Positions 31,609 through 57,549 of a stretch of 64,000 nucleotides of DNA are shown here, in pieces. A program made the position numbers and the translations under genes. The stretch covers positions 66,259 to 130,258 of the forward strand of contig JBEKTQ010000010.1 of assembly GCA_049515895.1 (NCBI GenBank), read 5' to 3'. The first letter of the stretch is position 1; each line of letters opens with the position of its first letter. Source of the stretch: Candidatus Bathyarchaeia archaeon. Its GTDB lineage: Archaea; Thermoproteota; Bathyarchaeia; Bathyarchaeales; Bathycorpusculaceae. Under the pieces are notes generated by a model that ran no database searches, was not told where the DNA came from, and saw nothing but the letters and a program-made list of their open reading frames with translations.

Positions 31609-31618
31609 ACAAATATCT

Positions 31619-33399: not shown

Positions 33400-33722
33400 C
33401 CGGTAGAGACTCAACCCGCGCGCTATCTCTTGTGATTTAGCACTTCGTCTGCCTCGTTTATGTGTCAAAGTAGAAAACCGCATTCCCAACTTTTGGGTGA
33501 AGGGAGCGAATTTGATAATAGCCATGGAGCTAGCGCTCGCCCAAATATCGAGCGCAGTAGATATAGCCTCCTTCTTAAAAAACTACCGATTTGGAGCAAA
33601 AGAACGACCCTTTTTAATCCATAAATACTTTTTTTAAAAGAGTTGAAACAAATACACTTTTGGGGACTTGATGTAAAGGTCCCAAGAAAAGGTTTCTTAA
33701 AAAAAAGAAAAAGAGGGTTTGT

Positions 33723-34546
33723 TTAATCTATTTTCCATCTTTTGGCTACCTTCACTATGAGGAACACGATGAGTGCCACAAAGATGAAGGTGATTAGCGC
33801 CACCAAGAAGTCGCCTATTCCAAAAGACTGCTTCGTAACCGAAACTGCATAGGTAGCTAAGTTTGACATGCCTGGAATTGCTAAGCCTAAGAGAGGAATT
33901 ATGAAGTCTGCGACAACCGCCTTGACCACAGCGCCAAGATACAAACCTAAAACGAACGCGACAGCTAGGCCAAGGACTTTGTACGATGATAGGAAGTCTT
34001 TGAACTCGTTCCATAGTCCTTTTGGCGGTGCCGTTGGGGGAGCTTTTTCAACCGCTTCTCTAATTTTCTTTAGTTCTTCTAACATTTGATCCTCTTTGTC
34101 CAATGTTATCACCTCAGATTCAGTTTTACTTATGACTTGCGAGGTCTCTGTTCCTGCAGCTGGCATCGATGACTCTAGTGATTCTGTCGAATCCTCTATT
34201 TCGGCATCGCAGCTTTGTCCCACCACTTCAATGCCGTTTAGGCAAGCTTCTTTTGTTTCATATCCTTCGCTGTCAGCAATAATTTCCCCGTTCCTTGCAT
34301 AGAGACGAAATCTAAACCTTCCAGCAGCGTCTTTATGAACTTGAAATTTTGGGTTTGACAGAGTTGGACCTTCGATTGTTGTGTCTTCAATTTTTGCGTT
34401 GCAATTTTTCTGTATACTTTTGATTCCGTTTATGCAACCTGCATGCTGTCATATGCTTCTCCTACAGCTACAATTTTGTTGTTGTCAGCTCGAAGACGAA
34501 AACGACATTTACCCGCGGCGTCTTTGTACATTTGAAATTTTGGCAA
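33723..34546 (-). pseudogene. Tandem DUF1508 (YegP-like) - MscL fusion with one frameshift
   Basis: KFQMYKDAAGKCRFRLRADNNKIVA and KFQVHKDAAGRFRFRLYARNGEIIADSEGY, the second in frame with MscL (EFKDFL..YKVLGLAVAFVLG); 1-nt loss near 34450. Confidence 0.8.
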
Positions 34547-34705
34547 CAGTAAGCCTCAATTTGTATTTCTAAGCAAGTTCTACAAAAGCTTTGCTAACGG
34601 TCTATTGTTTTAACTAGCGATATTTAATTTAAACCATTTTTTGACATGGACAGGCTGAAAAGTTTATATCGATTAAACAAAATCTTTGGATTAAGGTGAG
34701 TAATT

Positions 34706-35152
34706 TTGGGAGTTAAAGAAAATCTTGAGTTGATGAAAACGCTCGATGATTCGTGGAACGCAGGACCTAATAGTCCACTTTGGGAAACGTTCAAGAAACG
34801 CCACAGAGAAGACGTCAAAGTGTATTGGCCAGCCCAACCCCTGCCTACAGTAGGACGACACAACCATGATGTTGAGGCTACAGAATTCTTCAAAACTTTT
34901 GACAACCGATTAGTAAACAACCCCTACAAGATCGCCTTCGGTGATGAAAATCACACATGCACTGTTGCTGATTGGACGGTGACCATGAAAGGACCGATGA
35001 AAGGCGCAGACGGAAAGATTATCCCGTCAACCGGAAAAACGGCGAAGCTCGAATTTTGCACTGTCGCCACATGGAAAAACGGAGAAATCGTCGAAGAGCG
35101 ATTATTCTACGATGTCGTAGGTTTTATGCAGCAACTTGGGTTGTCAAAGTAA
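34706..35152 (+). CDS. SnoaL-like ester cyclase (NTF2 fold)
   Basis: IPSTGKT...TVATWKNGEIVEERLFYD...QQLGL. Confidence 0.85.
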   Translation: MGVKENLELMKTLDDSWNAGPNSPLWETFKKRHREDVKVYWPAQPLPTVGRHNHDVEATEFFKTFDNRLVNNPYKIAFGDENHTCTVADWTVTMKGPMKGADGKIIPSTGKTAKLEFCTVATWKNGEIVEERLFYDVVGFMQQLGLSK

Positions 35153-35179
35153 ACAGACTCCTTTTTTTCTTTTCGTGAG

Positions 35180-36049
35180 GTGGTTGGTATGGAGAGAAAG
35201 GTTGACAGGATTCTAAATCGTCGTACAACTTTAGAAGGCGCTGGTGTTAAGTTAAGAAGAGTTTTGGGAAATGATGATGACTCTACGCTTGATCCTTTCT
35301 TGCTTTTGGACCACTTTGGATCAGTTGATCCTGACGATTATATTCTAGGTTTTCCTTGGCATCCTCATAGGGGTATGGAGACAGTTACTTACATGTGGAC
35401 TGGTGAAGTTGAACACGGCGATAGCATGGGCAACAAAGGCGTAATCAAATCTGGAGACGTGCAGTGGATGACTGCTGGTTCAGGTATAATTCATCAAGAA
35501 ATGCCTCAAAAATACAATGGGTTAATGCAAGGCTTCCAACTATGGGTAAATCTGCCCGCAAAAAAGAAAATGATCGACCCTAAATATCGAGGAATAGAAA
35601 AACAACAAATCCCAGTACTCGAAAAAGATGGCTCAAAAATAAAAGTCATAGCAGGCAAGGTCGATGGAACGGAAGGACCAGTTCGCGACTTAGCAATATA
35701 CATAGAATACTTCGATGTAGAGCTAGATGCCGGAAAAACATTCGAGCACGTCACACCTAAGAATGATACGGTTTTTGCCTACGTCATTGAAGGATCAATA
35801 GAGATTGGGAGCAAGAAGATATTGCAGGGTCAGTGTGCAGTTTTTAGTGAAGGTGATTTAGTCAAAATAGTCTCGAAAGGCGGCGCTCGGTTTCTGTTTG
35901 TGTCTGGAGAACCTTTGAACGAGCCTGTGGCGTGGAGAGGACCAATCGTTATGAACACTGAAGAAGAGCTCGATAAAGCCTTTGAAGAATTAGATTCAGA
36001 TACTTTTATCAAAATTAAGAATCCAGTTAAGCATAAAAAATCAGTGTGA
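35180..36049 (+). CDS. Pirin family protein
   Basis: DPFLLLD, HPHRGMETVTY, QWMTAGSGIIHQE, GPIVMN. Confidence 0.95.
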   Translation: MVGMERKVDRILNRRTTLEGAGVKLRRVLGNDDDSTLDPFLLLDHFGSVDPDDYILGFPWHPHRGMETVTYMWTGEVEHGDSMGNKGVIKSGDVQWMTAGSGIIHQEMPQKYNGLMQGFQLWVNLPAKKKMIDPKYRGIEKQQIPVLEKDGSKIKVIAGKVDGTEGPVRDLAIYIEYFDVELDAGKTFEHVTPKNDTVFAYVIEGSIEIGSKKILQGQCAVFSEGDLVKIVSKGGARFLFVSGEPLNEPVAWRGPIVMNTEEELDKAFEELDSDTFIKIKNPVKHKKSV

Positions 36050-36056
36050 TGTAAGT

Positions 36057-36395: not shown

Positions 36396-36441
36396 ATCCT
36401 TAAGCCTTCTCTTTTCTTTGGGCGCTTATTTCTCGTATATT

Positions 36442-37131: not shown

Positions 37132-37218
37132 GTATTTAATAGCTGTGTGTAACCACTTTTATTTGAGGAAAGCGAAAGAAACGTACGCTTCCTTTTGAAA
37201 AGACAGAGGTTATCTCAT

Positions 37219-38748: not shown

Positions 38749-38847
38749 CAAACGCTCAAGCACGCATGAATCACTAAAAAAAGAAACAGGCAGCCCGAAG
38801 TTCATCGACTACATTAGTTAGAGAATCTAGTAATAATCCGCGCGCGC

Positions 38848-38877: not shown

Positions 38878-38970
38878 CCACTATGTCCAAACCCAACAGA
38901 GCGCGCACGGCAATTCTTATTAGCCGTGAAACATTTTTCTATCTTAGGTTGGATATTGCGGAGGTATATT

Positions 38971-39216
38971 ATGAAGGTCAAACCTGACAGAAAATTAGAC
39001 GCCTTGGGTCTTTACTGTCCTGAACCCGTTTTTAAGACTAGAAAGGAACTAGACAAGATGAAGGTTGGGGAGACCTTGGAGGTTGTGGCAGATGACCCTG
39101 CTGCAGAATCCGACATCAAAACCCTCATCAAACATTTGCAACAAGAGGTACTGAGCATTAACAAAGAGGGAGAGGCAACGCACATTCTAATCAGAAAGAT
39201 AAAAGAAGTAAGTTAG
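38971..39216 (+). CDS. tusA: TusA/SirA-family sulfur carrier (copy 1)
   Basis: LDALGLYCPEP, ADDPAAESDI; GGAGGT SD before ATG 38971. Confidence 0.9.
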   Translation: MKVKPDRKLDALGLYCPEPVFKTRKELDKMKVGETLEVVADDPAAESDIKTLIKHLQQEVLSINKEGEATHILIRKIKEVS

Positions 39217-39433
39217 CGAAGAACGAACACAATTAATTGGGACCGACCGCAAAACAAGTGTATGTGATCAAGCAAACATTGTGCTCAGCCTGTAGTTGCT
39301 ATGTAGCCTAATTTGTAAACTTGTCCGGTCGGTGTGGAAGACATTACCTGATGAAACAAGAAAGGCCACAAGCAACTTTGACTTACGTCAAAATCGCTGC
39401 AGTGGTTCAAATCGAATGTCAAATCGGTTGTCA

Positions 39434-39463
39434 GTTGTTGTTGCCCACGGCAATTCTTATTAA
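39434..39463 (+). promoter_or_regulatory. GYYG-N10-CGGC site plus TATA (CTTATTA)
   Basis: TCAGTTG-N10-CGGCAATTCTTATTA upstream of DsrE copy 1. Confidence 0.65.
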
Positions 39464-39497
39464 TGAACGGCTCTTTACGTAACTTAAGGTGAGATTT

Positions 39498-39917
39498 ATG
39501 TCTGAAAAGAAAAAACTCGCATTGATAGTTGAAAGCGGAACTATAGACAAACTTTATTGCGCCTTTATCTTGGGGTCTTCAGCAACGGCAATGGGGTGGG
39601 AAGCCCACCTTTACTTCACATTCTGGGGTCTTACCTCGCTGGTCAAAGGAGCAATGGAAAAGGCAAGCTTGCCTAGTGACTACAAACAAATGGAGAGCCA
39701 AATGACTGAGAGACTAAAACAGATGAAGTACCCGACTCCTTATGAGATGTTAAAACGGATGAAAGCTTCTGGGCTCCTTAAAATATACGCGTGCACACCT
39801 TCTATGCAGATGTTCAATATCAAGAAGGAAGATCTTATTCCAGAAGTTGATGAAATGGCAGGAGCCACAACGTTTCTAGATGTTGCGGCGAATGCAGACG
39901 TGACTCTTTTCATCTAG
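39498..39917 (+). CDS. DsrE/DsrF/DrsH-like (DsrE2) sulfur relay protein (copy 1)
   Basis: LYFTFWGL, IYACTPSM, AGATTFL. Confidence 0.9.
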   Translation: MSEKKKLALIVESGTIDKLYCAFILGSSATAMGWEAHLYFTFWGLTSLVKGAMEKASLPSDYKQMESQMTERLKQMKYPTPYEMLKRMKASGLLKIYACTPSMQMFNIKKEDLIPEVDEMAGATTFLDVAANADVTLFI

Positions 39918-39940
39918 TTTAGAAACAGCATCAACTGACT

Positions 39941-40288
39941 TCAAAGCGTTTCTACTTCAACGTCTTTATCATTCAGCAGTCTCATGAATTTTCCTCCTTC
40001 ATGAACGATCTCTCCTATACCTGCCGTATTAGTCTCCAAGAGTAAGTGCCAAGCGTTCATACCCGACTCTACCGCCAAGTAAAATTTCTGATGTGCGTCT
40101 GGAGCAAGACGCAATCGTATTTCGGCCTCTCTATTGTTCAACGATTCCTGCTTTGTGAATTCCAGGAGTCTTCCTATTGTTTCTGACTTTTCAATCAAAC
40201 TTTTTTTTATGAGTTGCCTGTCCTTTCTTGAAACTTTGGTTTTTTTGCACCAAAGTATTTGGAATCCTTCAAAAGAAAATTTGCTCAA
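39941..40288 (-). CDS. Hypothetical protein (copy 1)
   Basis: Paralogue at 62732-63078. Confidence 0.7.
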   Translation of the reverse strand: MSKFSFEGFQILWCKKTKVSRKDRQLIKKSLIEKSETIGRLLEFTKQESLNNREAEIRLRLAPDAHQKFYLAVESGMNAWHLLLETNTAGIGEIVHEGGKFMRLLNDKDVEVETL

Positions 40289-40434
40289 CAGACATTCCTA
40301 CAAATACTAAATGTAGCAAATATAAATAATTAGCTCTCCTGTTCAGTCTCGTCTCATCTGAATAGGGATAATTTCAGTTTTTGATCACAAAATTACTTGG
40401 TTATTTAGTTCGATTATGCTTCTTGTTCACATAG

Positions 40435-40821
40435 CTACGTCAAATGCTTCAAAGGAGTACCTGGACCAATATTTTCTTCTTTCTTTGAGAGAAACTCTTT
40501 GACTGTGGGCACTACTTTTTTGATCTCGTGATATCCTACCATGCTGCCGATGACTCTACCTTGATAGAATACTTCCAGTGTGGGAACTGTTCGGACTCCT
40601 CTACTGTGAGCTAAGGTTCGATTTGCCTTGTTGCGAATAACATCGATTTTGACGAATCGTGCCTCTCCTTCTAACGATTCAGCTAGCTGCTCGTATACTG
40701 GACTAAACTTTATACAGTGCGGGCAGGACTGACCAAAGAACTCGACTACAACAGGCTCTTCAACATGCAGAACCTCTTTATCGAAGGAACCTGCAGTAAT
40801 CTCACAGATATTGGGCAACAA
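40435..40821 (-). CDS. Thioredoxin (CPHC, copy 1)
   Basis: VVVEFFGQSCPHC, VRTVPT. Confidence 0.9.
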   Translation of the reverse strand: MLPNICEITAGSFDKEVLHVEEPVVVEFFGQSCPHCIKFSPVYEQLAESLEGEARFVKIDVIRNKANRTLAHSRGVRTVPTLEVFYQGRVIGSMVGYHEIKKVVPTVKEFLSKKEENIGPGTPLKHLT

Positions 40822-41131
40822 CTATCACCTGTTTGGTTCTTGTTTTTTCGTGATTTTGATGTTTACCAAACCATTTTCAGTATTGTGCAAGTAATAAAGT
40901 TATGTGCCTGCGAATCCGCAACAAACGTGTTGTTATTTCTTTGGCGGGTTTGGCGCGCGCGCCGGTCGTCGGCTTTGGCTAACACTCGGTTGTTTTCTGA
41001 TATCTGGAATGATTATTTTGGAACTTACTTGGAAGGCGGATTGCCGCGTTTTGTTTTGAAAAACAAGTGCAACAAAACATGTGATTTAACTGAATAAGTC
41101 ACTAAGTTAATACTATTCGGTTGACTATATC

Positions 41132-43021
41132 TTGTTGAAGGGAAAACGTTTGTTTTCTTACGCAGGAAAAATTTTACGCGTTAACCTCACAACAGGAGAA
41201 ACAAAAACTACTCCTTTATCAGAAGAGATGGCTAAACAGTACATCGGCGGGATAGGTTTAGGCATCCGCTTGCTTATGGACAATTCAAAACCGGGCACCG
41301 ACCCTTTCGACCCAGATAACCCCTTGATTTACAGTGCTGGTCCGCTCAGCGGCACCATGGGTCCGACAGCTGGGAACGGTTACGCGGTTGTTTCCAAGTC
41401 ACCTGCTACTAGAGGAGTGGGCGAAGGCAAAGCACATGGGTTCTTTGGTCCAGACCTTAAACGTGCAGGATACGACGCAGTCATCATCACTGGTAAAGCA
41501 CCAAAATTATCATACCTTTGGATTGACGATGACAAAGTTGAAATCCGAAACGCTGAATACCTAAAGTACGCAACACCTTACGAGGCTGACCTTAAAATCC
41601 GAGATGAACTCGGCGACTTTTACATCCGTGTTTCAGCCATTGGCGAAGCTGGAGAGAAACTTTGCAGGTTTGCAGCCATAATAAACGATGAGTTTCGTGC
41701 CATTGGAAGAAGCGGCATGGGCGGAGTCATGGGCTCCAAGAACCTGAAGGCGGTCGCTGTCCGAGGAACACATGACGTTAACGTTGCAAACCTTGAAGGA
41801 TTTAGAGAATTCATCGAAAAGATTTTTGAACGCATGGAGGGTCCATCAACCAAGAAATACAAAACTTTGGGGACACCTGAAAATGTTCTTGTTCTTAATT
41901 CTCTTTTTGCGTTAGCTACAAGGAACTGGACTAATGCCAGTTTTGAGGGCGCAGACAAAGTCAGTGGTGAATACTTAAACGAGCACTTTGTTAAGAAAAT
42001 TGTCGGTTGCGCAACATGCGGTATGCGCTGCGACCATATTGCAGTTGTGTCAGAAGGGCCATACAAGGGTTCAACTTCAAGGCTTGAGTTCGAGTGTCTT
42101 TGGAGCATGGGCCCATTATGCGGTATTGACCGTTTAGACGCTATCATTGAAGCTATGCGAATCGTTAATGAGTATGGCATGGACGGCATATCCATCGGCG
42201 TCGTCGTCGCATTTGCCATGGACTGCTACGAGCACGGCATGATCACAAAAGAGCAAACTGACGACATTGATCTTCGTTTTGGAAATGCAGAAGCCTTAAT
42301 CGCTATGATCCACAAAATTGGCAAACGCGAGGGCTGGCTCGGAAACGCACTGGCTGAAGGTGTTGCGAAAGCTGCTGAAATCATCGGCGGAGACGCATAC
42401 AAGTATGCTTGCCACATTAAAGGCTTAGAATTACCCGGCTATGACATTCGAACGCTAAAGACTGCGGCACTTGGTTTCAGTGTATCGTTTCGTGGTGCCT
42501 GCCATCTAAGGAACGGAGCTTACTCACCTGATGTTAAAGGTAAGGTTAATCGCTTCAAGATTGAGAAAGGCAGGGGTAAATTGATTGCGGACGAAGGCAA
42601 CATGTACAACGTCATTGACTCGCTTATCGTTTGCAAGTTTAGCAGAGGCACATACTACGATGGCTGGAAGGACTTGGCGAACTATTACACATTAGCCACT
42701 GGGCTGCCTATGACTCCGGAAGAAATGACAAAGAGCGGTGAACGCATCGAAAATCTGGCGAAACTCTTCAACATTCGAGAAGGCAAAGGCACACGTAAAT
42801 TCGACACCTTGCCCTGGAAGATAAAGAATGTTCCAGTGCCTGATGAGGGACCTGCCAAAGGCATGTACGTTAGCGAGGAGGAATTTCAAGTTGGCTTGGA
42901 CGATTACTACTCTGTCAGAGGCTGGACTGCCGATGGAGTGCCCACAACTGAGAAGCTCAAAGCGTTAGATCTCGGCGACTTTGCGTATATTGCTGAGAAA
43001 GTAACCATAGGGAGCTCATAG
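41132..43021 (+). CDS. aor: Tungsten-dependent aldehyde:ferredoxin oxidoreductase family protein
   Basis: KSPAT, GRSGMGGVMGSKNLKA, CATCGMRC, YGMD, KGLELPGYD, RGACH. Confidence 0.93.
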   Translation: MLKGKRLFSYAGKILRVNLTTGETKTTPLSEEMAKQYIGGIGLGIRLLMDNSKPGTDPFDPDNPLIYSAGPLSGTMGPTAGNGYAVVSKSPATRGVGEGKAHGFFGPDLKRAGYDAVIITGKAPKLSYLWIDDDKVEIRNAEYLKYATPYEADLKIRDELGDFYIRVSAIGEAGEKLCRFAAIINDEFRAIGRSGMGGVMGSKNLKAVAVRGTHDVNVANLEGFREFIEKIFERMEGPSTKKYKTLGTPENVLVLNSLFALATRNWTNASFEGADKVSGEYLNEHFVKKIVGCATCGMRCDHIAVVSEGPYKGSTSRLEFECLWSMGPLCGIDRLDAIIEAMRIVNEYGMDGISIGVVVAFAMDCYEHGMITKEQTDDIDLRFGNAEALIAMIHKIGKREGWLGNALAEGVAKAAEIIGGDAYKYACHIKGLELPGYDIRTLKTAALGFSVSFRGACHLRNGAYSPDVKGKVNRFKIEKGRGKLIADEGNMYNVIDSLIVCKFSRGTYYDGWKDLANYYTLATGLPMTPEEMTKSGERIENLAKLFNIREGKGTRKFDTLPWKIKNVPVPDEGPAKGMYVSEEEFQVGLDDYYSVRGWTADGVPTTEKLKALDLGDFAYIAEKVTIGSS

Positions 43022-43314
43022 AAATAGTGCGACCGCTCGCGCTTGTGCAGCTAGAAGGTGGCAAACCCAGGCTATTCGTGTTCGAAGGAGACGAGATTAC
43101 GGAAAGAGCCGACATCTAACTAGCGCGCAGTTTGTCTTTGGCTACAGAGTGTGTGCGCGCTGAATTAGGTAAGACGTTGAAGCAAGTTTACGATGCCATG
43201 CTAACTGCATATCGCGCATGTAAGGATAAGAAGCAGGCGAAAGGAGTATCCACTATTTTATGAAAAGTCGGGTTGTAGACTGCCTTTTTTGTGAGTTGGC
43301 GGGCTACATTCGAA

Positions 43315-44077: not shown

Positions 44078-44678
44078 TTTAATTCACTATAGGAAGAACT
44101 ATCATTAATCCAAATTAAACTTACGTCCCGGAGTACTTTAGTTTTGCTTAATGTTCAGAAGTTGCGTAGTTTTTCAATGGTTACCCGAGAGTTTGAACGT
44201 CGGCCTGACCTGGGTTTGATGTAGCCCGGGATAGGTTCAAACTCTCGTTCAAACTTTTCTGTGCTACCCTCAATTTGCTACTTAAAATGTAGCTTAATGC
44301 TATTAAAATGCTATCATTATTGCTATTTTTTGATAGCACACCCGAGAGTTCGACAATTTTCATAGGTCATGTTATATCCATGTTATGGCGTCCCCGAAAA
44401 CCAAAATCCTGCTGGCATTGACTTCGAAAATGCTGTTTAATGCGACGTCTATTTAGGAAAAAGGGCTCGTGGTGGGCCGCTGGTTTTTTCTGACTCGAGC
44501 GAGAAAAAGTACTGTTTTTGGGTGTTTTTATTCTGAGACCTCCTTCTTTATGAGCTCCTTAAGCTGTTCAGCCAGGATAGATAGCTGATGAGTCTGTGTC
44601 TGTTCTAAGGTCTCAGTTATATTCCCCCGCAACAAAGCTTCTCTGGTTAGAATTTCTTCGGGATTTTCTCCGCGCGCG

Positions 44679-45095
44679 CTAAGGGCGTTCTACAACAAGG
44701 GCTTCCCAGATATCCTCAGCTAAAGTTTCGTTGGACAGTTGGCACAATACGTCAGATGCAACTAGAATTCCCGCAACCCCGCCGCTCTCGGTGACTGGAA
44801 GACGCCTTATCTTACGTTCGCCCATAATTCGGGCTGCTTTCTTCAGGGTAACATTAGCGTTGATTGTTATGAGGGGCGATGACATGACCTCCGAAACTGG
44901 AGTAGTGTGAGGCAGGTTTTTTGCGATGGCTCTTATAACAAGATCTCTCGCGGTTATGATGCCGACAGTAATTTTGCCATCAACAATCAGCAAACTACTA
45001 TAACCAGACTCATTCATGAGGTTAGCAGCTTCCAAGACTGTCCGGTTCGACCCTATATTAACGACAGGTTTCATTATCTCTTTAACTGTGCGCAT
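44679..45095 (-). CDS. CBS-pair protein
   Basis: GIITARDL, VMSSPLITI, IRRLPV; ATG at 45095; stop abuts (GC)n tract. Confidence 0.88.
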   Translation of the reverse strand: MRTVKEIMKPVVNIGSNRTVLEAANLMNESGYSSLLIVDGKITVGIITARDLVIRAIAKNLPHTTPVSEVMSSPLITINANVTLKKAARIMGERKIRRLPVTESGGVAGILVASDVLCQLSNETLAEDIWEALVVERP

Positions 45096-45392
45096 AATCT
45101 TCGTAATACACAGGTGAACAAAAATAAGGTTTTCTATGGCGCACGCCAGTCGTTGGTTATTCAGCTTTTTTGTGTTTAGTTTCTGTTCATCTTGTGAGCA
45201 AGGTTTTGGACCAGGCTTCTTTACCCTGTTTAATCGAAATGCAGCAACCATGGAAGCATCGCGATCGTTTTTTTTGTCCATCTTTGGTGATGCTATATTC
45301 CTTTGTGTTTCTGCCATACCTAACTACGCGGCCAGAACACAGGAAAAACCAAAAATTCTTTCTATTTTTTTGTCTCGCGCAATGAACCAACA

Positions 45393-45647: not shown

Positions 45648-45877
45648 GTTTAGTCACATCAGTAGTAGGTTCTCTGTAAGATAATAAGTTTTACTAAGAG
45701 AATTCTAAGGGTCTGTTACTTGTAAATCGCGCGCGCATTTTGCAGCAGTTCACCTCGGGGAAAACAGCTCGCGAACGAGTGCCCTCCTATTCCCGTTACA
45801 AGTTCATGCTTTGAAATATGACTTAGCAAAAAATCGGACTTCTAACCTCAAGCACGCGCTCCACCATGGTGTTCAAA

Positions 45878-47005
45878 TTAAAACATCATCTTTCCACCCT
45901 TTTGTTGGACATTCTGGTCTAGTTCTTTGGCCAGCTCTTCCAGTAGGGCCCTTTGACGCTGAGTCAGCTTTTCAGGGACAACCACATTCACACGAACTCG
46001 CAGATCGCCTCTGCCATATCCTCCAATTCTCGGCATGCCCCTGCCTTTAACCCTCAGAATCTGCCCAGACTGTGTTCCAGGATGAATTCTCAGGTTAGCC
46101 TTTCCTTCGATCGCTGGTATTGTGACTTCCGCGCCTAAAGCTGCTTGAGTAAAGCTAATATTTAGATTGTACAAGAGATTGTCTCCGTCTCTTCTGAAGT
46201 ATTGATGAGGCGCCATGTGAATCAGAATGTATAAATCTCCTGAGGGGCCTTCGCCAGTCGGTGCTTCTCCTTGTCCTTTAAGCCTAAGCTGATATCCTTC
46301 ATTTACGCCAACCGGTATCTTCACCGTAATCTTTCGCGCCCTTTTTACGCGGCCTTTTCCCTTACAGTTTCTGCACGGTGAAACAATGATTTGGCCTCTG
46401 CCTTTGCAAGCAGAACACGGCACGACCTGCACAAACGTGCCAAATTCGCTTCCGCTTGTGTTTTGGAGCTTTCCAGACCCTTTGCACTTTGGACATGTTT
46501 GCACAGAAGTGCCTGGGGCAGCTCCAGAGCCCCCACAGACTTCGCATCTCTCAATTCTTGGGATCTCAATTTCCTTTTCAACACCGCGCGCTGCTTCTTC
46601 AAGGGCTATGTTAACTTCGCAGCGCAAATCCCGACCGCTGATAACTTCCTGTCTTTCTTCGAAGTCTCGACCCCCGAAGAAAACGTTGAAGAGATCTCCA
46701 AAACCGGAACTGACTCCCATGTCGCGAAATATCGAGTCGAAATCTGCACCTCGGAAAATGTCCTCCCGACTATACCTTTGATCAAATCCAGCGCCACCCA
46801 AATTGTCATACTGTTGCCGCTTCGCATCATCCGACAGCACTGCGTAGGCTTCGGATATCTCCTTGAACTTCTCTTCAGCTTCCGGAGACTTGTTCCTGTC
46901 AGGATGATATTGCAGCGCTAGTTTCCTGTAGGCGTCTTTTATCACGTCTTTGGAAGCATCCTTTGGAACACCTAGAATCTCGTAGTAATTCCTTTTTTCA
47001 GTCAT
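45878..47005 (-). CDS. dnaJ: Chaperone DnaJ (class A)
   Basis: HPD J-domain, four CxxCxGxG repeats. Confidence 0.96.
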
Positions 47006-47162
47006 TACTTACCTGTCTCTTAACTTTGGACTTGAAACAACTACTATATAATAATTGCAAAAGAAGCGCTTTGCACGCGCTTGTTCTCTGACTATCTGGA
47101 AGCGCTTGCTATATGCGCGCGCGAGTTTTCTGAAAAACTATTAATTAGTCGCTTAGCCTAAA

Positions 47163-47582: not shown

Positions 47583-47862
47583 TTGTTGATGCAAGAATTC
47601 ATGCCAAGTCCAGACATGATCCGCTCAAACTCGTTAAGGAAATTCCAATAAAACTGAAACAGGCAAATCGAACAAACAAGCCCTCCACGGCTGGTTCTGG
47701 CAGCCCAAGGCTTGTCGCGGATTGGGAGGCATAGAGTAAGACAAATCAAAATTTATTTTATATTTTTTATATGTTCTGATGATAAGGTAAAATCAGGCAA
47801 GCTTTTCTCCCTCTATACCCCAAGATTTTGGAAGGCCTTGCGCATGCCCAGATCAGCGCGTG

Positions 47863-48744
47863 CTAAAATTTTAAACTTTCGACGAGAATTCTCTTCATTA
47901 TTCCCAAGCCATGTCGGAGCTTAAGCTTTTTCTCGCCCAGCCTAATCCGGTAATCAATTGGGATTTCAACAATTCGGTAACCTTTACGCCCAACAATCGC
48001 GTTCATTTCAGCTTCCACGTCGAAGCCTTTGCTCTTGGGTTTCCAGCCTTCGAGTATTTCACTCCTAACAACACGCTGACCAGACAGAGGATCATTAAGC
48101 TTAACACCGTTCATTACGAACTGGGCAAGCGTCCAAAGAGCCATGCTGAGTCCGTCAGTCATCATAGTTGAAGCGCTACCGACCAGGCCAAAACTAGTAA
48201 GCACCGTGCTCAGGCTTGTAAACGCGCCAATAACACTTGGGATAATGGTTAGTGAACTCATCATTATTGTTTGGTTCATGTTATTTTGTGCGTCTTGTAC
48301 CCGTTGCTGGGCGACAGAAAGCGCGTCCCGGGCAGCCTTAAGCTTGTCTGCTGCGTCTATCGCTTGTTGACTGTTAGGACCATACTTAGCCACGGCTTCT
48401 TTGTACTTTTCTTGGGCTGTCTGCACGCCATTAGTGTCCTTCTCAACAACTACGTGAGCTCTATCCAGAGACGTCTCAGCACTTTCAAGGCTATGGACGC
48501 TGGTAACTAAACCAGCAGCACTGAGAACAGCTGTATTCATAGCCATTGCATTCTTGGTAAAACTGCCACTGCTAACCTCGGATGCCGACGCAATCTGACT
48601 ACTTGAAGCGCTAACGTCTTCCGCAGCCTGCGAAGCGCCGTTCGTTACAGTGGTGAATCATTCAGTGGCGCTGCTGCTGATGTCTTGGAAAACGCTTGAT
48701 GCTTCAACAAACGCTGTAATGTTAAACTCAACATTCGCACTCAT
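47863..48744 (-). pseudogene. Chimeric pseudogene: tape-measure-like N-terminus fused to GT2 (DPM1-like) C-terminus
   Basis: ATG 48744, in-frame TGA 48658-48660, Ala/Ser-rich helical region, then NDPLSGQR..GFDVEAEM..EIPIDYR.RLGEKKL. Confidence 0.65.
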
Positions 48745-50092: not shown

Positions 50093-50285
50093 TCACGCGC
50101 GCTACTATATCTTCAGCGTATTTCCTTGCAGAACCACAAGGTCTAAACTCCAAGAGTTAATTGGTGGTTTACTTGCTTGTCAGTTGAATCATTCATTGCT
50201 CAACATCAGGGAGACGACTATAATAGATAGCGCCATAGAGATTCCAAGCGGCGCATTTGCAAGCGAAAGTTCGGGAAAAAAATGG

Positions 50286-51068: not shown

Positions 51069-51297
51069 TTAAAGCGCAGTTGATTGCGCGTATGACTACA
51101 CCTATTTAACCTGGTTAACTAAGCGCGCGCGTTTTCAATTCATCATATTTCTGTCTCAATTGAGCTTTATAGGGTTAAATGTTTACACTTGCAATAAATG
51201 CGGTAACCATTTCAAGGTAATTAGCTAAAGGCTACTTAGATTAGGCACAAAAGACGCCGAGAAAGCAAACAAGATCTTTCGGAGACCCATATTTCGC

Positions 51298-51675
51298 TTA
51301 GCGCGCACGCTTATTGATCTCTCTTTGTTTTGCTTCTGGAATCAACTGATTCAGTTTACTAACCAGCTTCTCGGCTTCTTCTGTTCGAAGCGGAATATTT
51401 ACATCTACGTCGGGCAATGCTATTTTGACTTCTCCCGTTTTTTCCATATTCACAGAATTAATGTCAGATAAGTGGATATGCAATGGCACAAAGACCCTCA
51501 AGATACGACCAAATGTTTCCGTAAGGCCTGGCGCGTTTTCAAGCGCTTCCTCGATTTCGTTTTTCACGTTTCCTCTCACGTCTATTTTCAACAGATTGTT
51601 GGAAACCTTAATAACAAAATTTGGATGGTCAATCTCCAAAACCAAATCGGTCTCTGACATTCTTAACCCCTTCAA
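51298..51675 (-). CDS. Hypothetical protein (PH-like), 3' end at a (GC)n tract
   Basis: IHLSDINSVNME pattern; last codons are the GCGTGCGCGC tract. Confidence 0.55.
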   Translation of the reverse strand: MKGLRMSETDLVLEIDHPNFVIKVSNNLLKIDVRGNVKNEIEEALENAPGLTETFGRILRVFVPLHIHLSDINSVNMEKTGEVKIALPDVDVNIPLRTEEAEKLVSKLNQLIPEAKQREINKRAR

Positions 51676-51865
51676 TTCTCGTTACAACTATAGACGCGGA
51701 AATAAACTTTCACTTGCGAAAATGGAGGCGCCGCTCCATCGGCGTCCGCTTGAAAATTTGGTCGCCAAACCCAAAATTAAAATTAGTGAACACATAAAAC
51801 TATGCTAATTGGAATTTATTTCAATAGCGGGGAAAAACACTCGAAAGTTATGTCTAAGTTGATTA

Positions 51866-52137
51866 CTACTTCGTTTTAGCTTTATCCCTGAGGGCTTCGA
51901 GTTTCTCTGAGACTTTTTTGCTTCGTTCTTCTGCTTCAGCCAGCATGGGTTTCCAATCTTTGTTTTTGACTATATTGGTTATTCGTTCAGTTTCTGCGGG
52001 CAACTTCTCCAGGGTTTCGCTCATGCGTTTATCGGCTTCTTCATCAGTGGTTACGATCTCTAGGGCTTCTTCGGGGCAGAATTCTACACATTGAGGTTCC
52101 CCGCCGCAAAGATCGCATGCTACTGAAAAGCCTGTGT
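51866..52137 (-). pseudogene. C-terminal fragment of 4Fe-4S dicluster protein
   Basis: ACDLCGGEPQCVEFCPEEAL then helical tail; 5' part missing at the IS boundary. Confidence 0.75.
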
Positions 52138-52144
52138 CGCGCGC

Positions 52145-53241
52145 TGGTTTGTCCCGAAATTGAAAAGCTTATTTTAATAGAGGGGTCTCGTATCAAATAA
52201 GTCACGTCCAAGCTTAGGAGGTGAGTCCTAGCGGGACAAGATGAACACGAGACCCTAGAAGTCCTCTTCAGAAACATTGACTTAAGCTTTGCTAAACGAG
52301 TTATGAGAGGCTGCTTTCACACTTATGGACCAGGCAGGCATCCCAGAAATCCATTTGGCCTTTTCAGAACCATCATCATAATGAAGATGAAAGGCGTTCG
52401 CAGCCTAAGAGAAATGACCCGCCTACTTGACACTGATTTGCGACTTAGAAAGTTGTGTTTAATAAAGAAAAAGGAAACAGCGTACCCTAGAAGCGTTCTG
52501 AGCAGGTTCAGTGGAAGGGTTGGAGAAGACAAACTAACCAAAATAATAGAGGAGAAGGTTGTTAAGCTCTTGAAACAGAACGGCGCGAAAGAAGTTGATG
52601 CTGTTTTTGATGCTTCTTTCATTAAAGTTTGGAGTACACGAGACCCGGAAGACAACCAAACGGGATACTCAGACGCAGAAGCCAGAGTTGGAAGAGCAGG
52701 CAGAACATTCGGGCTTGGATACAAGTTACATTTGGCTATTGACTCTAAGACTATGCTTCCTTTGGCTTGCACCTTTGCATCCGCCAACCAGAACGAGCAG
52801 AAACACTCCTTGAACATGTTAGAGAAGGCAAAGCTGGTTCTCAAACAATCTGCGGCCAAACTGAAAAGCGTGATTGCTGACAGTCAGTACAGCGACGGCA
52901 AACTCAGAAACGCCGTTGACAAGACGGTGATTCCTTATCGGTCAAACCAGAAACGTAACGTTAATGGTTTGCTTAGGGTAGACAAGAAGTTCAGAACCTA
53001 CGGACCTGAAGAACAGAAAATGGAGTATCACAAAAGGCCACGCATTGAAGCGGTCTACAGCTTCCTGAAGACTCAGTGCAGTCTGACAATCAACAAGGTT
53101 AGAGGCTTGGGCAACGTAGCTTCATACGCTCTCTTCAGCATTCTTTGCTTGGTTCTCAACCGAGAGGCAGCTGAAAACATCGGCAGATCTGATAAAGCAG
53201 TATCACCTACCTACTTCAACACGTAATATCGGGACAAGGCA
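52145..53241 (+). mobile_element. IS element A (IS5/IS1182-like DDE)
   Basis: TIRs TGGTTTGTCCCGAAATT / TGCCTTGTCCCGATATT, each directly flanked by GCGCGC. Confidence 0.88.
52303..53226 (+). CDS. DDE transposase (DDE_Tnp_1-like)
   Basis: DASFI, GYKLHL, ADSQYS, RPRIE; frame extends to 52228 after a GGAGGTGA SD. Confidence 0.9.
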   Translation: MRGCFHTYGPGRHPRNPFGLFRTIIIMKMKGVRSLREMTRLLDTDLRLRKLCLIKKKETAYPRSVLSRFSGRVGEDKLTKIIEEKVVKLLKQNGAKEVDAVFDASFIKVWSTRDPEDNQTGYSDAEARVGRAGRTFGLGYKLHLAIDSKTMLPLACTFASANQNEQKHSLNMLEKAKLVLKQSAAKLKSVIADSQYSDGKLRNAVDKTVIPYRSNQKRNVNGLLRVDKKFRTYGPEEQKMEYHKRPRIEAVYSFLKTQCSLTINKVRGLGNVASYALFSILCLVLNREAAENIGRSDKAVSPTYFNT

Positions 53242-53466
53242 GCGCGCGAACAAGTACTCATTTTTACTAGCACCAAACCAAAGTTTACTGAGCGCGCTAG
53301 CTTATGGTCAAACAATCCAGTTCTAGTCCGAGTAATCCAACAGTGGTATGATTTCATGTGGGAAAAGAGTAGCTTAAAATGTGTTAGATAGTGCAGATAG
53401 AAGGTTTTCTTAATGATGCTATTCTTGTTCTACAACTTTAGATTCGGGCGTTCAAATTAATCTCTG

Positions 53467-53679: not shown

Positions 53680-53694
53680 ATCCCGCTCGATCCA
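53673..53694 (+). other. tRNA 3'-end remnant (att-like, tRNA-Ala-like)
   Basis: GGTTCAAATCCCGCTCGATCCA without 5' half. Confidence 0.55.
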
Positions 53695-53821
53695 CTACTC
53701 ACATCTTTTTACTGGTAAATTGGCGTCAAAATCCCATTCCCGGGGCCTTTTTAAGACGTCTATTGAGCTTAGCGCGCGCGCTAAATCAGGGCAAAAGTTT
53801 TTTTAAGCTCATGACATGAAA

Positions 53822-53868
53822 CGACCCGACAAAGCAGTCTCACCAACCATTTCAACATGTAGTATCGA
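53822..53868 (+). pseudogene. 3' remnant of an IS-A-type transposase gene
   Basis: CGACCCGACAAAGCAGTCTCACCAACC..TTCAACATGTAGTATCG resembles IS-A end GATAAAGCAGTATCACCTACCTACTTCAACACGTAATATCG. Confidence 0.7.
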
Positions 53869-53874
53869 GCGCGC

Positions 53875-54982
53875 CAGTTTGTTGCTTAAATATTGAAGTG
53901 AACATATTCATGTTTAAATTTGTTCGAACTTGAGTATATAGGGTGAAGGATGGAAGAACCCGAATTTTCATGTACCATCCTGTCAAAACTGAACCTATGT
54001 GACATAGAAAAAGTCGTCAAGGAAGCCTACCATAAAGAAAATAGTCCGGGCCGCCCTCCGAGAAAACCCATGGGCATCTTTAAAGCGCTCATCGTTAAAC
54101 GGCTCCAGCAGATTCCCAGCGAAAGAGAAATCTGCAGACGATTATGGAAAGACGAGAATCTTAGAGAACTCTGCGACATAGAAGCTGAAGAGAATCCTTA
54201 TCACCCGTCTCAGTTGTCACGGTTTAAGAAGCGTGTCGGAAATAGGAGGCTTCAGAGAATCATGGACAAGCTGCTCAAGGAGTTATTGAGGGGCGGTGTT
54301 ATAAGCGGCGAAACGGTGGACTCGGACGCTACGTTCGTAGCCGCGTACAGTCGGCGTGACCCGCACGATAACAGTCGTGGAAAGTCTGATCCCGAAGCTA
54401 GGGTTGGCAGAGACGGAAAAACCTACGGGCTCGGCTACAAACTGCACATAATTACGGATGCTAAGTCAGAGTTGCCCTTGGCAGTTATCGCTGCGCCTGC
54501 GAACGATAACGAGAAGAAGCATGCTCCTGCCCTTTTTCGCAGGGCTTGGAAGGTAAGCGAGCATCGAATTAAAACTTTCATTGCAGATTCACAGTATTCA
54601 AGCAGAAAACTAAGAGACCGGCTTTCAGCGTGCGGTGTCAACGCGGTGGTTCCCTATCCGGCCAATCAGAAAAAAGAAGAGGCTGCGGGTGGACAAGTAC
54701 TTCAGAACCATGGTCCCAGCTTAGAGAAGCAGCTCTACAGGCAGAGAAGCGGGGTTGAGCGGGTGAATTCGAGGCAGAAGGAGCAGCTTTGTCTTGAAAG
54801 GCATAGGGCTAGAGGTCTAAAACGAGTAACTACGCATGCGCTGCTCTTCATGATCGCCATGCTGCTCAATGGGGTGGTAGCGTTGAGGCTAGGCAGACCG
54901 GAAAAAGCGAGATCAATCACTATGCTCGCAAGGTAAAGGCAAACAGACGTTAACACAAAGAAATCGAATTAGCAACAAGCTG
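53875..54982 (+). mobile_element. IS element B (same family as A)
   Basis: TIRs CAGTTTGTTGCT / CAGCTTGTTGCT flanked by GCGCGC and GCGCGCGC. Confidence 0.88.
53950..54936 (+). CDS. DDE transposase with a short out-of-frame segment
   Basis: GRPP, DATFV, GYKLH, ADSQYS, RSGVER; conserved LRVDKYFR lies in another frame at about 54680-54710. Confidence 0.85.
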   Translation: MEEPEFSCTILSKLNLCDIEKVVKEAYHKENSPGRPPRKPMGIFKALIVKRLQQIPSEREICRRLWKDENLRELCDIEAEENPYHPSQLSRFKKRVGNRRLQRIMDKLLKELLRGGVISGETVDSDATFVAAYSRRDPHDNSRGKSDPEARVGRDGKTYGLGYKLHIITDAKSELPLAVIAAPANDNEKKHAPALFRRAWKVSEHRIKTFIADSQYSSRKLRDRLSACGVNAVVPYPANQKKEEAAGGQVLQNHGPSLEKQLYRQRSGVERVNSRQKEQLCLERHRARGLKRVTTHALLFMIAMLLNGVVALRLGRPEKARSITMLAR

Positions 54983-54990
54983 GCGCGCGC

Positions 54991-55326: not shown

Positions 55327-55330
55327 TTTC

Positions 55331-55522
55331 TTACTCGTGCCCTTTTGTTTCATGGTGAATTGTATCTCTGTGTCTCTCCATCTCTGAGTTGGTCTTGAAG
55401 GTTTTACCGCAATCTGGACAAGGAATCTGGCTTGGTTCTACTCCCCTCACTGGTATTTCTTGAGATGAAGGCGCTCCCAACGTGTGAGGCTGATGAGTCT
55501 CTTTCTTTTTCATGACTTGCAC
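55331..55522 (-). CDS. Small C2H2 zinc-finger protein
   Basis: CPDCGKTFKTNSEMERHRDTIH. Confidence 0.75.
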   Translation of the reverse strand: MQVMKKKETHQPHTLGAPSSQEIPVRGVEPSQIPCPDCGKTFKTNSEMERHRDTIHHETKGHE

Positions 55523-55845
55523 CCAAACACTCTAGAAGAGGGTTCAAGCTTTCTTAAATATATGTGGATGTAGCGAAACAATAACAAAGTCACTTTTGTT
55601 TCAAGACTCGAGTGGTTGTTAAAGTGCAAACTAATAGTTGACAGTTAACAAAAGGATTTTCCGTTTGTTTGGGTTTTTGGATTAAATCTTAATCCCACAC
55701 ACACTTGTTTTTCATTAATTATCCTGAAATAGCATCTTAAATATGTGAACCTTAAATGAGAATCGTACGTAGTCTTGATTATATGAGAATCCTTGTATTC
55801 ACTGAAGGTACGCTAATCAGCACAAGCCTAACATCTCTAAAGGAG

Positions 55846-57243
55846 TCAGAGGTCATATTCTTCCAAGTATACGGGAGCGGTCACTTCCCATCCGCCTTTT
55901 GAATTCAGGTAGTTTTCTAAGCTCAAGATCGATCCTTCTTCGCCATGAGTCAAGAAAACATGCTTCGGCGGAGCTTTGAAGTTGTCAAGCCAGCGGTGCA
56001 AATCATTCATACCAGCATGCGCAGATAAACCATTAATGTTCTCAATCCTCATCCGTACGGGGTAGGATTCACCGAGAATACTTACTGGGGAAACGCCGTC
56101 CAAGATTTGTCGTCCAAGGGTTCCAACCGCTTGGTACCCCACAAAAATAAGTGCAGATTCGGGACGCGTTATTTCTCTGACCAGATGATGTTTAATTCGT
56201 CCTCCAGTAATCATCCCCGAACCAGCCATTATGATTGTTGACCCTTTGATCAGGTTGATCGCTTTCGATCCTTCAACAGATTCGACTAGCTTCAATCCTG
56301 GAAAATCAAAGGGTGTTTGACCATCCTTGAATAGTTCCAGAGCTTTTTTGTCAAAGTACTTCTTGCTCTGTTCAAAAACCTTCGTGATTTCTACAGCCAT
56401 AGGGCTATCGAGAAACGTAACAATGTAAGGAATTCTTTTTGCACGCGCCAACAAGCTAATATGGTATAAGAGCTCTTGGGCTCGTTCAATAGCGAAGGTG
56501 GGGATAATGACATTACCGCCAGATTTTATTGTGTCATTGATAATCTTGCTGAGTTTATCATCAATATCTTGTAAGTTATCATGATTTCGATCTCCATATG
56601 TGGACTCCATGACCACGTAATCTGCTCGATCAAATACTGTGGGGTTGTTGAGTAGAGGCGTATCCCACTGTCCGATATCGCCAGAGAATATGACGTTTCG
56701 CGACCCGTTCTCGTCTTGTAAAACGATCTCAATCATGGCCGAGCCAAGGATGTGGCCGGCATCGTGGAAACAAACCTTGATTTGATCGTTTAGCGGCAGA
56801 AACTCTTCGTATGGAACAGCTTTCAGGAGGGGAAAGCACTTTTCTGCATCTTGGACTGTGTATAAAGGGGTTTCCGTGTAAGGCTCCTCATGTTCTTCGT
56901 TGTTGTTTCGGTTTTTCTTGAAGGCAGCGTCTTCTTCTTGGATGCGGGCAGAATCTAAAATCACTATTGGGAACAACTCCTTAGAAGCAGCGGTTAGTAG
57001 AATATCTCCGTGAAACCCTTCTTTGACAAGTTTAGGAATAAGTCCAGAGTGGTCTTGGTGAACATGGGTGAGGAGGAGATATTCGATCTGGTCTGGAGGA
57101 ATAGGGAAAGCCTCCCAGTTTCTGTGGGAATAGTCCCGTTCTTGAAACATGCCGCAATCGATGAGGATTTTCACTTTGGCGGTTTCCAGTAAGTAGCTTG
57201 ATCCTGTCACTTGATGTGTTGCGCCTAGGAATTTTATTTTCAT
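55846..57243 (-). CDS. MBL-fold beta-CASP ribonuclease (YSH1/CPSF-like)
   Basis: THVHQDHSG, AGHILGS, SGD, ESTYG, GYQAVGTLGR, SAHA, HGE. Confidence 0.93.
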   Translation of the reverse strand: MKIKFLGATHQVTGSSYLLETAKVKILIDCGMFQERDYSHRNWEAFPIPPDQIEYLLLTHVHQDHSGLIPKLVKEGFHGDILLTAASKELFPIVILDSARIQEEDAAFKKNRNNNEEHEEPYTETPLYTVQDAEKCFPLLKAVPYEEFLPLNDQIKVCFHDAGHILGSAMIEIVLQDENGSRNVIFSGDIGQWDTPLLNNPTVFDRADYVVMESTYGDRNHDNLQDIDDKLSKIINDTIKSGGNVIIPTFAIERAQELLYHISLLARAKRIPYIVTFLDSPMAVEITKVFEQSKKYFDKKALELFKDGQTPFDFPGLKLVESVEGSKAINLIKGSTIIMAGSGMITGGRIKHHLVREITRPESALIFVGYQAVGTLGRQILDGVSPVSILGESYPVRMRIENINGLSAHAGMNDLHRWLDNFKAPPKHVFLTHGEEGSILSLENYLNSKGGWEVTAPVYLEEYDL

Positions 57244-57549
57244 GATCTTCTTTCACTACATTGTTATTTCTCATTTCTGCCCTATGAGTTCTTCCATTAC
57301 TACTCGTAGTTGAGTGCAATCTCTTTGTATGCTGCAGGCTCAGCGCGCGCTGCGGCACTACTTTTAAGTAGTTTTATATTGCCATTAAATAGGTGATGAA
57401 AGAATGTCAGGACTGATCCTTTCTGGAAAAGCAAACGAACTTGTTTGTTGAGCCTCAGAAAATCTTGCAATTGCTTGACTGAAACTTCAAGTTATCTTTT
57501 TCTTTCATCTGAAAAGTGACGTAAATCTATGAAAGGGAGGTGAAGACCT

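Follow-up and report, generated by a model that had tools for sequence, protein, structure and literature searches.

GCGCGC at the ends of an insertion sequence family and (GC)n tracts in a variable genomic island of a Bathyarchaeia archaeon

Mobile elements such as piggyBac (TTAA), IS630/Tc1 (TA) and IS5 (YTAR) duplicate a short palindromic target, which can be restored upon excision. Closest to the elements described here are the insertion sequences (IS) of the IS5 and IS1182 families. According to an excerpt of a preprint (bioRxiv 10.1101/2024.06.02.596822), a ~1-kb IS5/IS1182 element of E. coli C was inserted with a 62-kb deletion and without target duplication; an excerpt of PMC5678879 describes IS1272, a member of the IS1182 family, as replacing target stem-loops without duplication. 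Here we investigate a stretch of 64,000 nt from a Candidatus Bathyarchaeia archaeon (the window; contig C10, positions 66259-130258, of genome G000 with 3.18 Mb in 53 contigs). Bathyarchaeia are abundant and uncultured, and the remodelling of their genomes is almost unstudied. Between positions 33417 and 57350 the window carries 20 strictly alternating G/C runs of at least 6 nt (tracts), 14 of them at least 7 nt and the longest 10 nt, together with members of an IS family whose ends carry the same sequence.

With moderate confidence we regard the tracts as the terminal signature of a ~1.1-kb IS5/IS1182-like DDE transposase family, comprising three subfamilies and miniature transposable elements with inverted repeats (MITEs), that scarred and reshuffled this island. 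The hexamer GCGCGC would be carried or made by the element and would not be a pre-existing target, and insertion would occur without classical duplication, often replacing target DNA. GCGCGC reads identically on both strands, and the inverted termini therefore double as direct repeats of 6 bp. Through slippage or microhomology-mediated deletion at this repeat pair the element could be removed, leaving a solo tract of variable register (6-10 nt), and recurrent insertions, rearrangements caused by the IS and losses, in an accessory region that tolerates them, may have produced the solo tracts at gene and fragment junctions. Intergenic (GC) tracts of at least three units would be a simple marker of present and past insertion sites and of rearrangement junctions in genomes and metagenome bins, and the family provides a testable case of duplication-free insertion by IS5/IS1182-group DDE transposases. 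For annotation, caution is required: ORFs beside tracts are often truncated or chimeric, e.g. the ferredoxin genes at 43023 and 52137, the CBS ORF, which continues into an IS relic, and perhaps the ORF of DedA.

Like IS5 and IS1182 elements, the members of the family are about 1.1 kb long, possess terminal inverted repeats and encode one transposase of ~310-330 aa with DUF772 and DDE_Tnp_1 domains. Two copies, IS_A and IS_B, lie in the window (Table 1). Pfam matches to DDE_Tnp_1 and DUF772 are 1.4e-15 and 6.4e-7 for the transposase of IS_A (ORF 52303-53226), 1.3e-24 and 5e-14 for that of IS_B (ORF 53950-54936). In IS_A, CGCGCGC precedes TGGTTTGTCCCG at the left end and GCGCGCG follows CGGGACAAGGCA at the right end; the 25-nt arms of the inverted repeats (52137-52161 and 53225-53249) are 88% complementary, and matching ends are found in all copies. 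Copies of IS_B in genomes G019, G042 and G016 are 88-92% identical. A third subfamily on contig C12 has a protein just 28-31% identical and quite different inverted repeats. In an alignment of the three transposases D, D, E and the spacing Y-2-R-3-E-6-K, which we take to be the mark of IS4/IS5 transposases, are invariant. Unlike IS5 and IS1182 transposases, all three score below every curated NCBIfam cut-off, including those of both families (best IS1182, 150.5 vs 270 bits; IS5_4, 122.9 vs 140). tblastn of G000 revealed about ten further copies or fragments, several of them at contig ends (13 matches in total).

What further sets the family apart from IS5 and IS1182 is the invariant GCGCGC outside the otherwise divergent inverted repeats of the three subfamilies, and the presence of hundreds of solo copies of the hexamer in intergenic DNA. 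Twelve of the 15 IS ends examined in G000 abut GCGCGC, and the remaining three are decayed or missing. IS copies in other genomes of the genus likewise carry GCGCGC against the inverted repeat. Among 55 public loci with full flanks the tract lies against the inverted repeat on both sides in 30, on one side in 22 and on neither side in three. Every recognisable end of the family abuts GCGCGC, in three subfamilies and in MITEs, here and in related Bathyarchaeia, which bears out the tie to the resident IS family suggested by the original prediction. All 80 public loci returned are titled Bathyarchaeia or Bathyarchaeota, except one 'uncultured archaeon'; so far the family is found only in Bathyarchaeia. 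The full-text literature searched, a scope outside which ISfinder and supplements lie, holds no description of GC-tipped IS ends or (GC)n punctuation in these archaea.

The same ends were recovered starting from the tracts. In-register clustering of the 1144 outward flanks of the 572 tracts of G000 gave 32 similar pairs as compared to one in displaced controls, and the clusters resolve into IS_A, IS_B, the C12-type IS and MITEs of ~165 nt and ~480 nt. As is typical of MITEs, these carry the family inverted repeats without a transposase and occur in several genomes, copies being present outside G000 as well; unlike in MITE families, most tracts have no recognisable MITE attached. A genus search with the flanks of the MITE on contig C28 returned no orthologues of them. 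Mobility of the family is indicated by matches in 18 of 61 genomes of the genus and by the many different sequences that follow position 53247 in four sequencing runs. Inspection by eye of about 19 complete elements revealed no direct repeat beyond the GC tract, which may itself be a 6-bp duplication or the tip of the element. In lacking a visible outside duplication and in the coupling of insertion to loss of target DNA, the elements resemble the E. coli C element and IS1272 as far as the excerpts describe them. Besides the two IS, BLAST detected just one further relic in the window, at 45139-45266; it directly adjoins the end of the CBS homology block. By eye, the sequence between the tracts at 43123 and 43155 begins like an IS inverted repeat (AGTTTGTC...), a resemblance that BLAST did not detect. 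Stretches of 45-87 nt ending in an IS_A-type right-end fragment of ~41-54 nt, with a GC tract also on the inner side, occur at 53772-53874 of the window and at C3:7093-7149 and C34:1566-1637 of G000.

The tracts are real and far from random. We listed alternating runs of at least 5 nt across the window and counted those of at least 6 nt. The original prediction had listed 25 positions: 22 are exact starts of runs of at least 5 nt, three (43567, 45852 and 47073) lie 3-4 nt upstream of a run, and the cluster is genuine, with one tract of 7 nt inside dnaJ (46585) missed. The first 33 kb were said to contain only isolated 6-mers in coding sequences, and window 1-33416 indeed holds three runs, each of 6 nt and all within ORF calls. 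The full run listing shows none of at least 6 nt in 57351-64000. GCGCGC occurs 32 times in the window as compared to 13.7 +/- 3.4 in dinucleotide shuffles (0 of 100 reach 32), and 31 of these occurrences fall in 33417-57350. Genome-wide, 572 tracts of at least 6 nt and 199 of at least 7 nt were found. The densest of 330 genome bins of 10 kb, C10:110001-120000, corresponds to window 43743-53742 and holds 8 tracts of at least 7 nt (bin mean 0.59).

The excess is restricted to intergenic DNA and to alternating GC. Gene calls were crude ORF calls, which label 82% of the genome as coding; by these calls the 199 long tracts divide into 120 intergenic, 4 at a gene edge and 75 'coding', and in the island 18 of 20 tracts lie in intergenic DNA or at the edge of a gene. 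Unlike the long tracts, 5-nt runs distribute genome-wide as the coding fraction. As compared to Markov models of orders 1-3, intergenic GCGCGC is 3-6x in excess (304 observed, 54-111 expected) and intergenic GCGCGCGC 11-33x (80 observed, 2.4-7.2 expected). The same comparison gave no excess of GCGCGC in coding DNA (262 observed, 280-539 expected) and no enrichment of other G+C-rich hexamer palindromes. The island carries 18 non-coding tracts in 7.39 kb as compared to 3.2 expected from the genome-wide intergenic density, a baseline which is itself inflated (5.6x, Poisson 1e-8). A count against a null, proposed along with the original prediction, yields an intergenic excess, none in coding DNA and an island denser than intergenic DNA at large. 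Contigs of runs X1, X2 and X3, which belong to three different studies, span many tract junctions with 0 differences (Table 1). Since independent contigs bridge the junctions, the mosaic is not an assembly artefact, and the possibility of chimeric junctions, raised at the outset, falls away.

The tracts lie at gene and fragment junctions, as had been claimed. Homology-block boundaries were taken from the 150 matches listed of 283 in a genus search with window 38001-58000, without a formal control. Among these matches, at least 10 of the island's 20 tracts have a block boundary no more than 12 nt away, as do the 5-nt runs at 43038 and 47856. The expectation that breakpoints fall in tracts holds for these, and not for many other boundaries, which are plain gene ends without a tract (e.g. 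55810, 45878, 47582). Three ORFs, with ends at 44679, 47863 and 51298, have stop codons that abut or overlap a tract, and the gene modules named in the original prediction are bracketed by tracts, their identities being confirmed by Pfam. Of 19 homologous loci fetched from relatives, 14 have no tract. The module of TusA, DsrE, hypothetical and thioredoxin genes (38926-40821) has a paralogue at 61728-63514 with 70-79% DNA identity; tracts bracket only the first, and similarity starts right after the tract 38901-38906. A 274-nt gene 3' end on contig C11 stops at GCGCGC followed by an IS_B-type end, while its copy in the window stops at a decayed solo tract. Decayed tracts (GCGCACGC, GCGCGTGC) at old IS ends and paralogous sites fit the CpG decay that had been offered as an explanation of tract variants. 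Across the 61 genomes, GCGCGCGC counts range from 0 to 112; G000 has the highest count and also the most IS matches, and the six tract-densest genomes each have at least six IS matches. The median of GCGCGCGC per Mb is 5.8 in genomes with IS matches (n=18) and 1.9 in those without (n=43). GCGCGCGC outnumbers CGCGCGCG about twofold in G000 (112 vs 57), as it does in most of the relatives rich in tracts.

Orthologous sites allow tip and target to be compared. The left end of IS_A cuts a 2x[4Fe-4S] ferredoxin gene, and the 89% identical sequence of G064:C12 reads on without a GC tract. On contig C26, the MITE at 45870-46034 and its two hexamers stand in place of some 340 nt of an MscL gene, which is intact in G056 and three other loci; neither junction is GC-rich there. 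In G042, an IS_A relic with GCGCGC abuts the beta-CASP block, at a position where the tract is missing from the window and from two other genomes. In G000, the sites orthologous to the left junction of IS_B in G004 (site on contig C1 of G000) and to that of IS_A at locus L127 (site on contig C19 of G000) are AT-rich without a tract. At the right end of IS_B, the sequence in relatives is GAGCGCCC, GATCGCCC or GACGCCC; a tip of 6 nt and the GC beside it add up to exactly the 8 nt of the tract observed. In each case one flank only is orthologous, and the elements sit at deletions and synteny breaks. These six IS or MITE junctions without a tract elsewhere favour the tract as element tip.

A number of observations weigh against this reading. 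BLAST of the flanks of 29 + 12 + 80 IS loci from other genomes against G000 returned no locus with both flanks contiguous, i.e. no simple insertion, and no orthologous pair was found in which the element of one genome is replaced, between matching flanks, by a solo tract in the other. Ten of 60 IS ends have a flanking tract of at least 8 nt, where a rough, uncomputed estimate for a 6-nt tip with random flank gives about 5%. Where two IS types abut, as on C11, within the window and in a contig of run X3, there is one tract for both, which suits a 6-bp duplication of a tract target better. Only 32 of 498 flanks of 249 non-coding tracts (about 6%) match an IS or MITE end at 12 or more of 16 positions (controls 3). 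Individual hexamers can arise by point changes, and the ORF calls behind the intergenic bias are crude. The correlation of tract density with IS copy number over the 61 genomes (Spearman rho 0.53-0.55) ignores relatedness. Moderate GCGCGCGC counts occur without an IS match (G054 24, G002 15, G022 13, G012 13), and G030, from another family of the order, has 53 without a match to this transposase. An inverted-repeat pattern on the flanks gave a weak signal (YTTGTY in 24 of 498 intergenic flanks vs 5 in controls), and tract spacing shows a slight excess only (28 gaps of up to 100 nt vs 18.6 simulated). Since few flanks are recognisable IS or MITE ends, the origin of about 85-90% of the tracts, the solo ones, can only be inferred; they may be footprints of lost elements.

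A serious, though less likely, alternative is that intergenic (GC)n tracts exist for another reason (slippage, structure or regulation), and that A-GCGCGC-T is the specific insertion site of the IS family, with 6 bp duplicated; the tracts would in addition be fragile or recombinogenic, so that deletions and rearrangements end there. Such behaviour would resemble that of piggyBac, IS630/Tc1 and IS5, with a short palindrome on both ends and solo copies that could be restored donor sites. The lengths of the two flanking tracts add up to N+6, where the distribution of N is that of solo tracts: pairs at public loci are (6,6) 14, (8,6) 7, (6,7) 5 and (8,8), (7,6), (7,7) and (6,10) 1 each, those in the window 7+7 for IS_A and 6+8 for IS_B. 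Extensions in 2-nt steps, such as those of the ten long-flanked ends, are commoner than chance, and the tract shared by abutting IS_A-type and IS_B-type ends has been mentioned. The context A...T is common to solo and IS-flanking tracts; base composition around the 199 long tracts stands out at two positions only, -1 with A (49%) and +1 with T (50%). Some IS1182 members are said to target palindromes in an excerpt of PMC5678879, citing Siguier et al. However, unlike the palindrome of a pure target duplicator, the one described here lies at sites that lack it in the six orthologues, two of them in coding sequence (the ferredoxin gene and MscL), and the tract-flanked MITE that replaces part of MscL joins it at sites that are GC-rich on neither side. 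The transposase is of a different family from those of piggyBac and IS630. Moreover, the intergenic excess of 3-33x, missing from most congeners (many have 0-6 GCGCGCGC per genome), has no origin under this explanation. The original prediction had called the tracts targets and scars; in view of the six junctions 'targets' is doubtful, and 'scars' is what we infer for the solo tracts. An element-borne hexamer that also favours landing in existing tracts is a possible hybrid.

An extension of the element-tip reading, which we consider speculative and rather unlikely, is that the family carries or regenerates GCGCGC and is erased between its palindromic termini, each cycle leaving a Z-DNA-prone (GC)3-5 scar that would be a preferred site of the next insertion. 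A circular or staggered-cut intermediate with a single-GCGCGC junction would be a possible route, and insertion would often occur into breaks, with target DNA lost and without classical duplication. If so, the family would seed its own landing pads and focus insertions, gene truncations and the shuffling of segments on accessory islands, being a counterpart, driven by a transposase, of repetitive extragenic palindromic (REP) or attC punctuation. Like the REP/RAYT systems (REPtrons), the tracts are short palindromes, strongly over-represented, intergenic only and transposase-linked; unlike REP sequences of 20-40 nt they measure 6-10 nt, and they are linked to a DDE transposase encoded by a mobile IS instead of to one domesticated gene. 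A RAYT-type Y1 transposase (PF01797) had 0 matches in G000 in a search that matched 6 of 14 control genomes.

That the tracts are functional punctuation unrelated to mobile elements, either a palindromic binding site or a Z-DNA-prone absorber of supercoils, is improbable. The strict intergenic bias and the palindrome in A/T context would agree with it, but the tracts have no consistent position relative to gene starts or ends, occupying divergent, convergent and tandem spacers alike, are not conserved at orthologous positions of relatives, vary from 0 to 112 per genome within one genus and decay at dead IS ends.

The original prediction saw in the tracts the targets and scars of a rearrangement process, probably driven by the resident IS family, that assembles an integron-like array without attC; here this is taken as a dedicated system with the tracts as its recombination sites. 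As in integron arrays, small gene modules or single genes are bracketed by short palindromes in an accessory region; the small gene 51298-51675 is tract-bracketed here and, in its G047 homologue (L043), with different neighbours, and the genus search finds island segments dispersed over the genomes of relatives. This explanation is nevertheless very improbable and largely refuted. Except for the IS transposases, no integrase or other recombinase is present in the island or on the contig: a scan of 40 island and flank ORFs revealed no Phage_integrase match, and none of the 12 PF00589 matches of the genome lies on C10. Unlike in integron arrays, IntI, attI, attC and a common orientation are missing, the genes occupying both strands. 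Whereas attC sites are imperfect palindromes of roughly 55-140 nt, the junctions share no repeat family beyond the tract. Relatives' homologous loci are mostly tract-free, as are block boundaries such as 55810, 45878 and the edges of an MscL-containing indel (33592-34704) beside a conserved block of G056, and several 'cassettes' are truncated genes, not units.

Chance, base composition, microsatellite slippage or misassembly are refuted by the counts: other dinucleotide 8-mers are likewise 2-5x above expectation in intergenic DNA, but the 15-33x excess of (GC)4, the shuffles, the Poisson value of the island and the bridging contigs of three studies all stand against them, tracts of 6-10 nt being far shorter than assembler words.

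Table 1. Tracts, IS, relics and genes of the island and related elements; positions refer to the window unless a contig is named
Feature	Position	Strand	Remarks
tRNA-Pro(TGG)	33325..33401	+	ARAGORN; left boundary of variable island
Tract	33417..33423		7 nt; 15 nt past tRNA-Pro
Tract	38839..38847		9 nt, solo; X1 and X2 contigs bridge
Tract	38901..38906		6 nt; similarity to second TusA-DsrE-hypothetical-thioredoxin module (61728-63514) begins at 38907
TusA, DsrE, hypothetical, thioredoxin genes	38926..40821		Pfam; tracts on both sides
Tract	40953..40962		10 nt; between divergent thioredoxin gene and aor; G059 aor-locus homology begins 31 nt rightward
Aldehyde:ferredoxin oxidoreductase gene (aor)	41132..43021	+	Pfam AFOR_N + AFOR_C
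Ferredoxin gene start	43023..43042		follows aor in relatives; cut after four codons at CGCGC run 43038-43042
Tract pair	43123..43160		two 6-nt tracts, 26 nt apart; possible mini-relic
Tract	44671..44679		9 nt; overlaps CBS gene stop codon; homology blocks end here from both sides
IS_B-type end relic	45139..45266		decayed tract GCGCACGC at tip; BLAST vs IS library 84% over 134 nt
Tract	45728..45736		9 nt, solo; downstream of dnaJ
dnaJ	45878..47005	-	Pfam; bracketed by tracts 45728 and 47115; internal 7-nt tract 46585-46591
Tract	47115..47123		9 nt; relatives' homology begins at 47128, 5 nt rightward
Decayed tract GCGCGTGC and 274-nt gene 3' end	47856..48131		97% identical to C11:16140-16413
Tract	50096..50102		7 nt; within long DedA/VTT ORF; one relative's block stops 10 nt earlier
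Tract	51123..51131		9 nt, solo; between convergent genes
Tract	51301..51306		6 nt; abuts stop codon
Block with truncated 2x[4Fe-4S] ferredoxin gene at its end	51698..52137	-	ferredoxin 5' part removed by IS_A
IS_A	52138..53248	+	transposase ORF 52303-53226; 25-nt terminal inverted repeats start CGCGCGC / GCGCGCG
Tract	53292..53297		6 nt; 43 nt beyond IS_A end
Tract	53772..53781		10 nt
IS_A-type right-end relic	53828..53868	+	roughly 41 nt; abuts IS_B left tract; by-eye comparison
IS_B	53869..54990	+	transposase ORF 53950-54936; ends GCGCGC then CAGTTTGTTGC, and GCAACAAGCTG then GCGCGCGC
Tract	57343..57350		8 nt; last in cluster; beta-CASP block homology stops 10 nt before
Tracts at block boundaries	38901, 44671, 47115, 50096, 51301, 52138, 53242, 53869, 54983, 57343		among matches listed
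Tracts bridged by X1-X3 contigs	38839, 38901, 40953, 43123, 43155, 44671, 45728, 47115, 50096, 51123, 51301		0 differences
MITEs	C26:45870-46034; C26:4759-5240; C28:17451-17933		outside window; family inverted repeats, GCGCGC at both ends, no transposase

The variable region beside tRNA-Pro that forms the island contains two intact IS copies, relics of at least two ends and genes cut short at tracts. Contig C8 of G064 is collinear with window 26003-33399, and collinearity ends at the 3' end of the tRNA. None of the direct repeats of at least 18 nt in 33000-58500 is a repeat of the tRNA end; the contig stops at window 64000, and the far boundary possibly lies beyond. According to Pfam, the genes are, in order, MscL, SnoaL, pirin, thioredoxin, CDGSH, a YceI fragment, a pyridine-nucleotide oxidoreductase fragment, cupin, TusA-DsrE-hypothetical-thioredoxin, aor, winged helix-turn-helix (wHTH), CBS, wHTH, dnaJ, cupin, DedA/VTT and beta-CASP. 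The dense part of the mosaic extends from 38.8 to 57.3 kb; window 34704-37621 is a single conserved block in G056, without a tract.

The aor loci of G059, G019, G047 and G003 are 85-86% identical to that of the window and have no tracts; the aor-ferredoxin homology block stops at 43034-43036 in at least five genomes, among the matches listed (L032-L034 aligned). Blocks 44470-44679 and 44678-45139 match different genomes. The 212-aa 'CBS' ORF (44679-45317) consists of a conserved CBS block up to 45139, followed by the IS-end relic 45139-45266; the N-terminal stretch of this ORF is probably spurious. At 37332-38085, two ORFs, one YceI-like (102 aa) and one Pyr_redox_2-like (131 aa), match their Pfam models in part and look like gene fragments. 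Parts of the island have second copies in the genome: the start of contig C6 of G000 (C6:1-2736) carries paralogues of the dnaJ 5' end (94%), beta-CASP (84%) and wHTH (89%). Within the island, the cupin genes 38351-38650 and 48834-49133 are duplicates with 77% identity over 300 nt.

Some candidate junctions were rejected. The IS of locus L153 at the 3' end of dnaJ is not the window junction, its end being about 190 nt from the start of homology. Run-contig joints 45882/52139 and 44171/52141, on opposite strands, have short sides of 27-37 nt and probably represent paralogous or related loci. At a locus shared by tract-rich G045 and tract-free G012, the two 6-mers that align are distinguished by point changes or by an indel of 2 nt, a comparison uninformative on scars.

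Further repeats were observed in the island. A 50-nt direct repeat (34303-34352 and 34494-34543, 76% identical, 191 nt apart) lies in the spacer beside MscL. The palindromic motif ACGGCAATTCTTATTAGCCGT and close variants are located upstream of TusA and DsrE (38907-38927 and 39447-39462), and motifs of this type also occur near 61763 and 63600, one at either end of the paralogous module. The motif looks like a putative operator of the sulfur-relay genes, unrelated to the IS.

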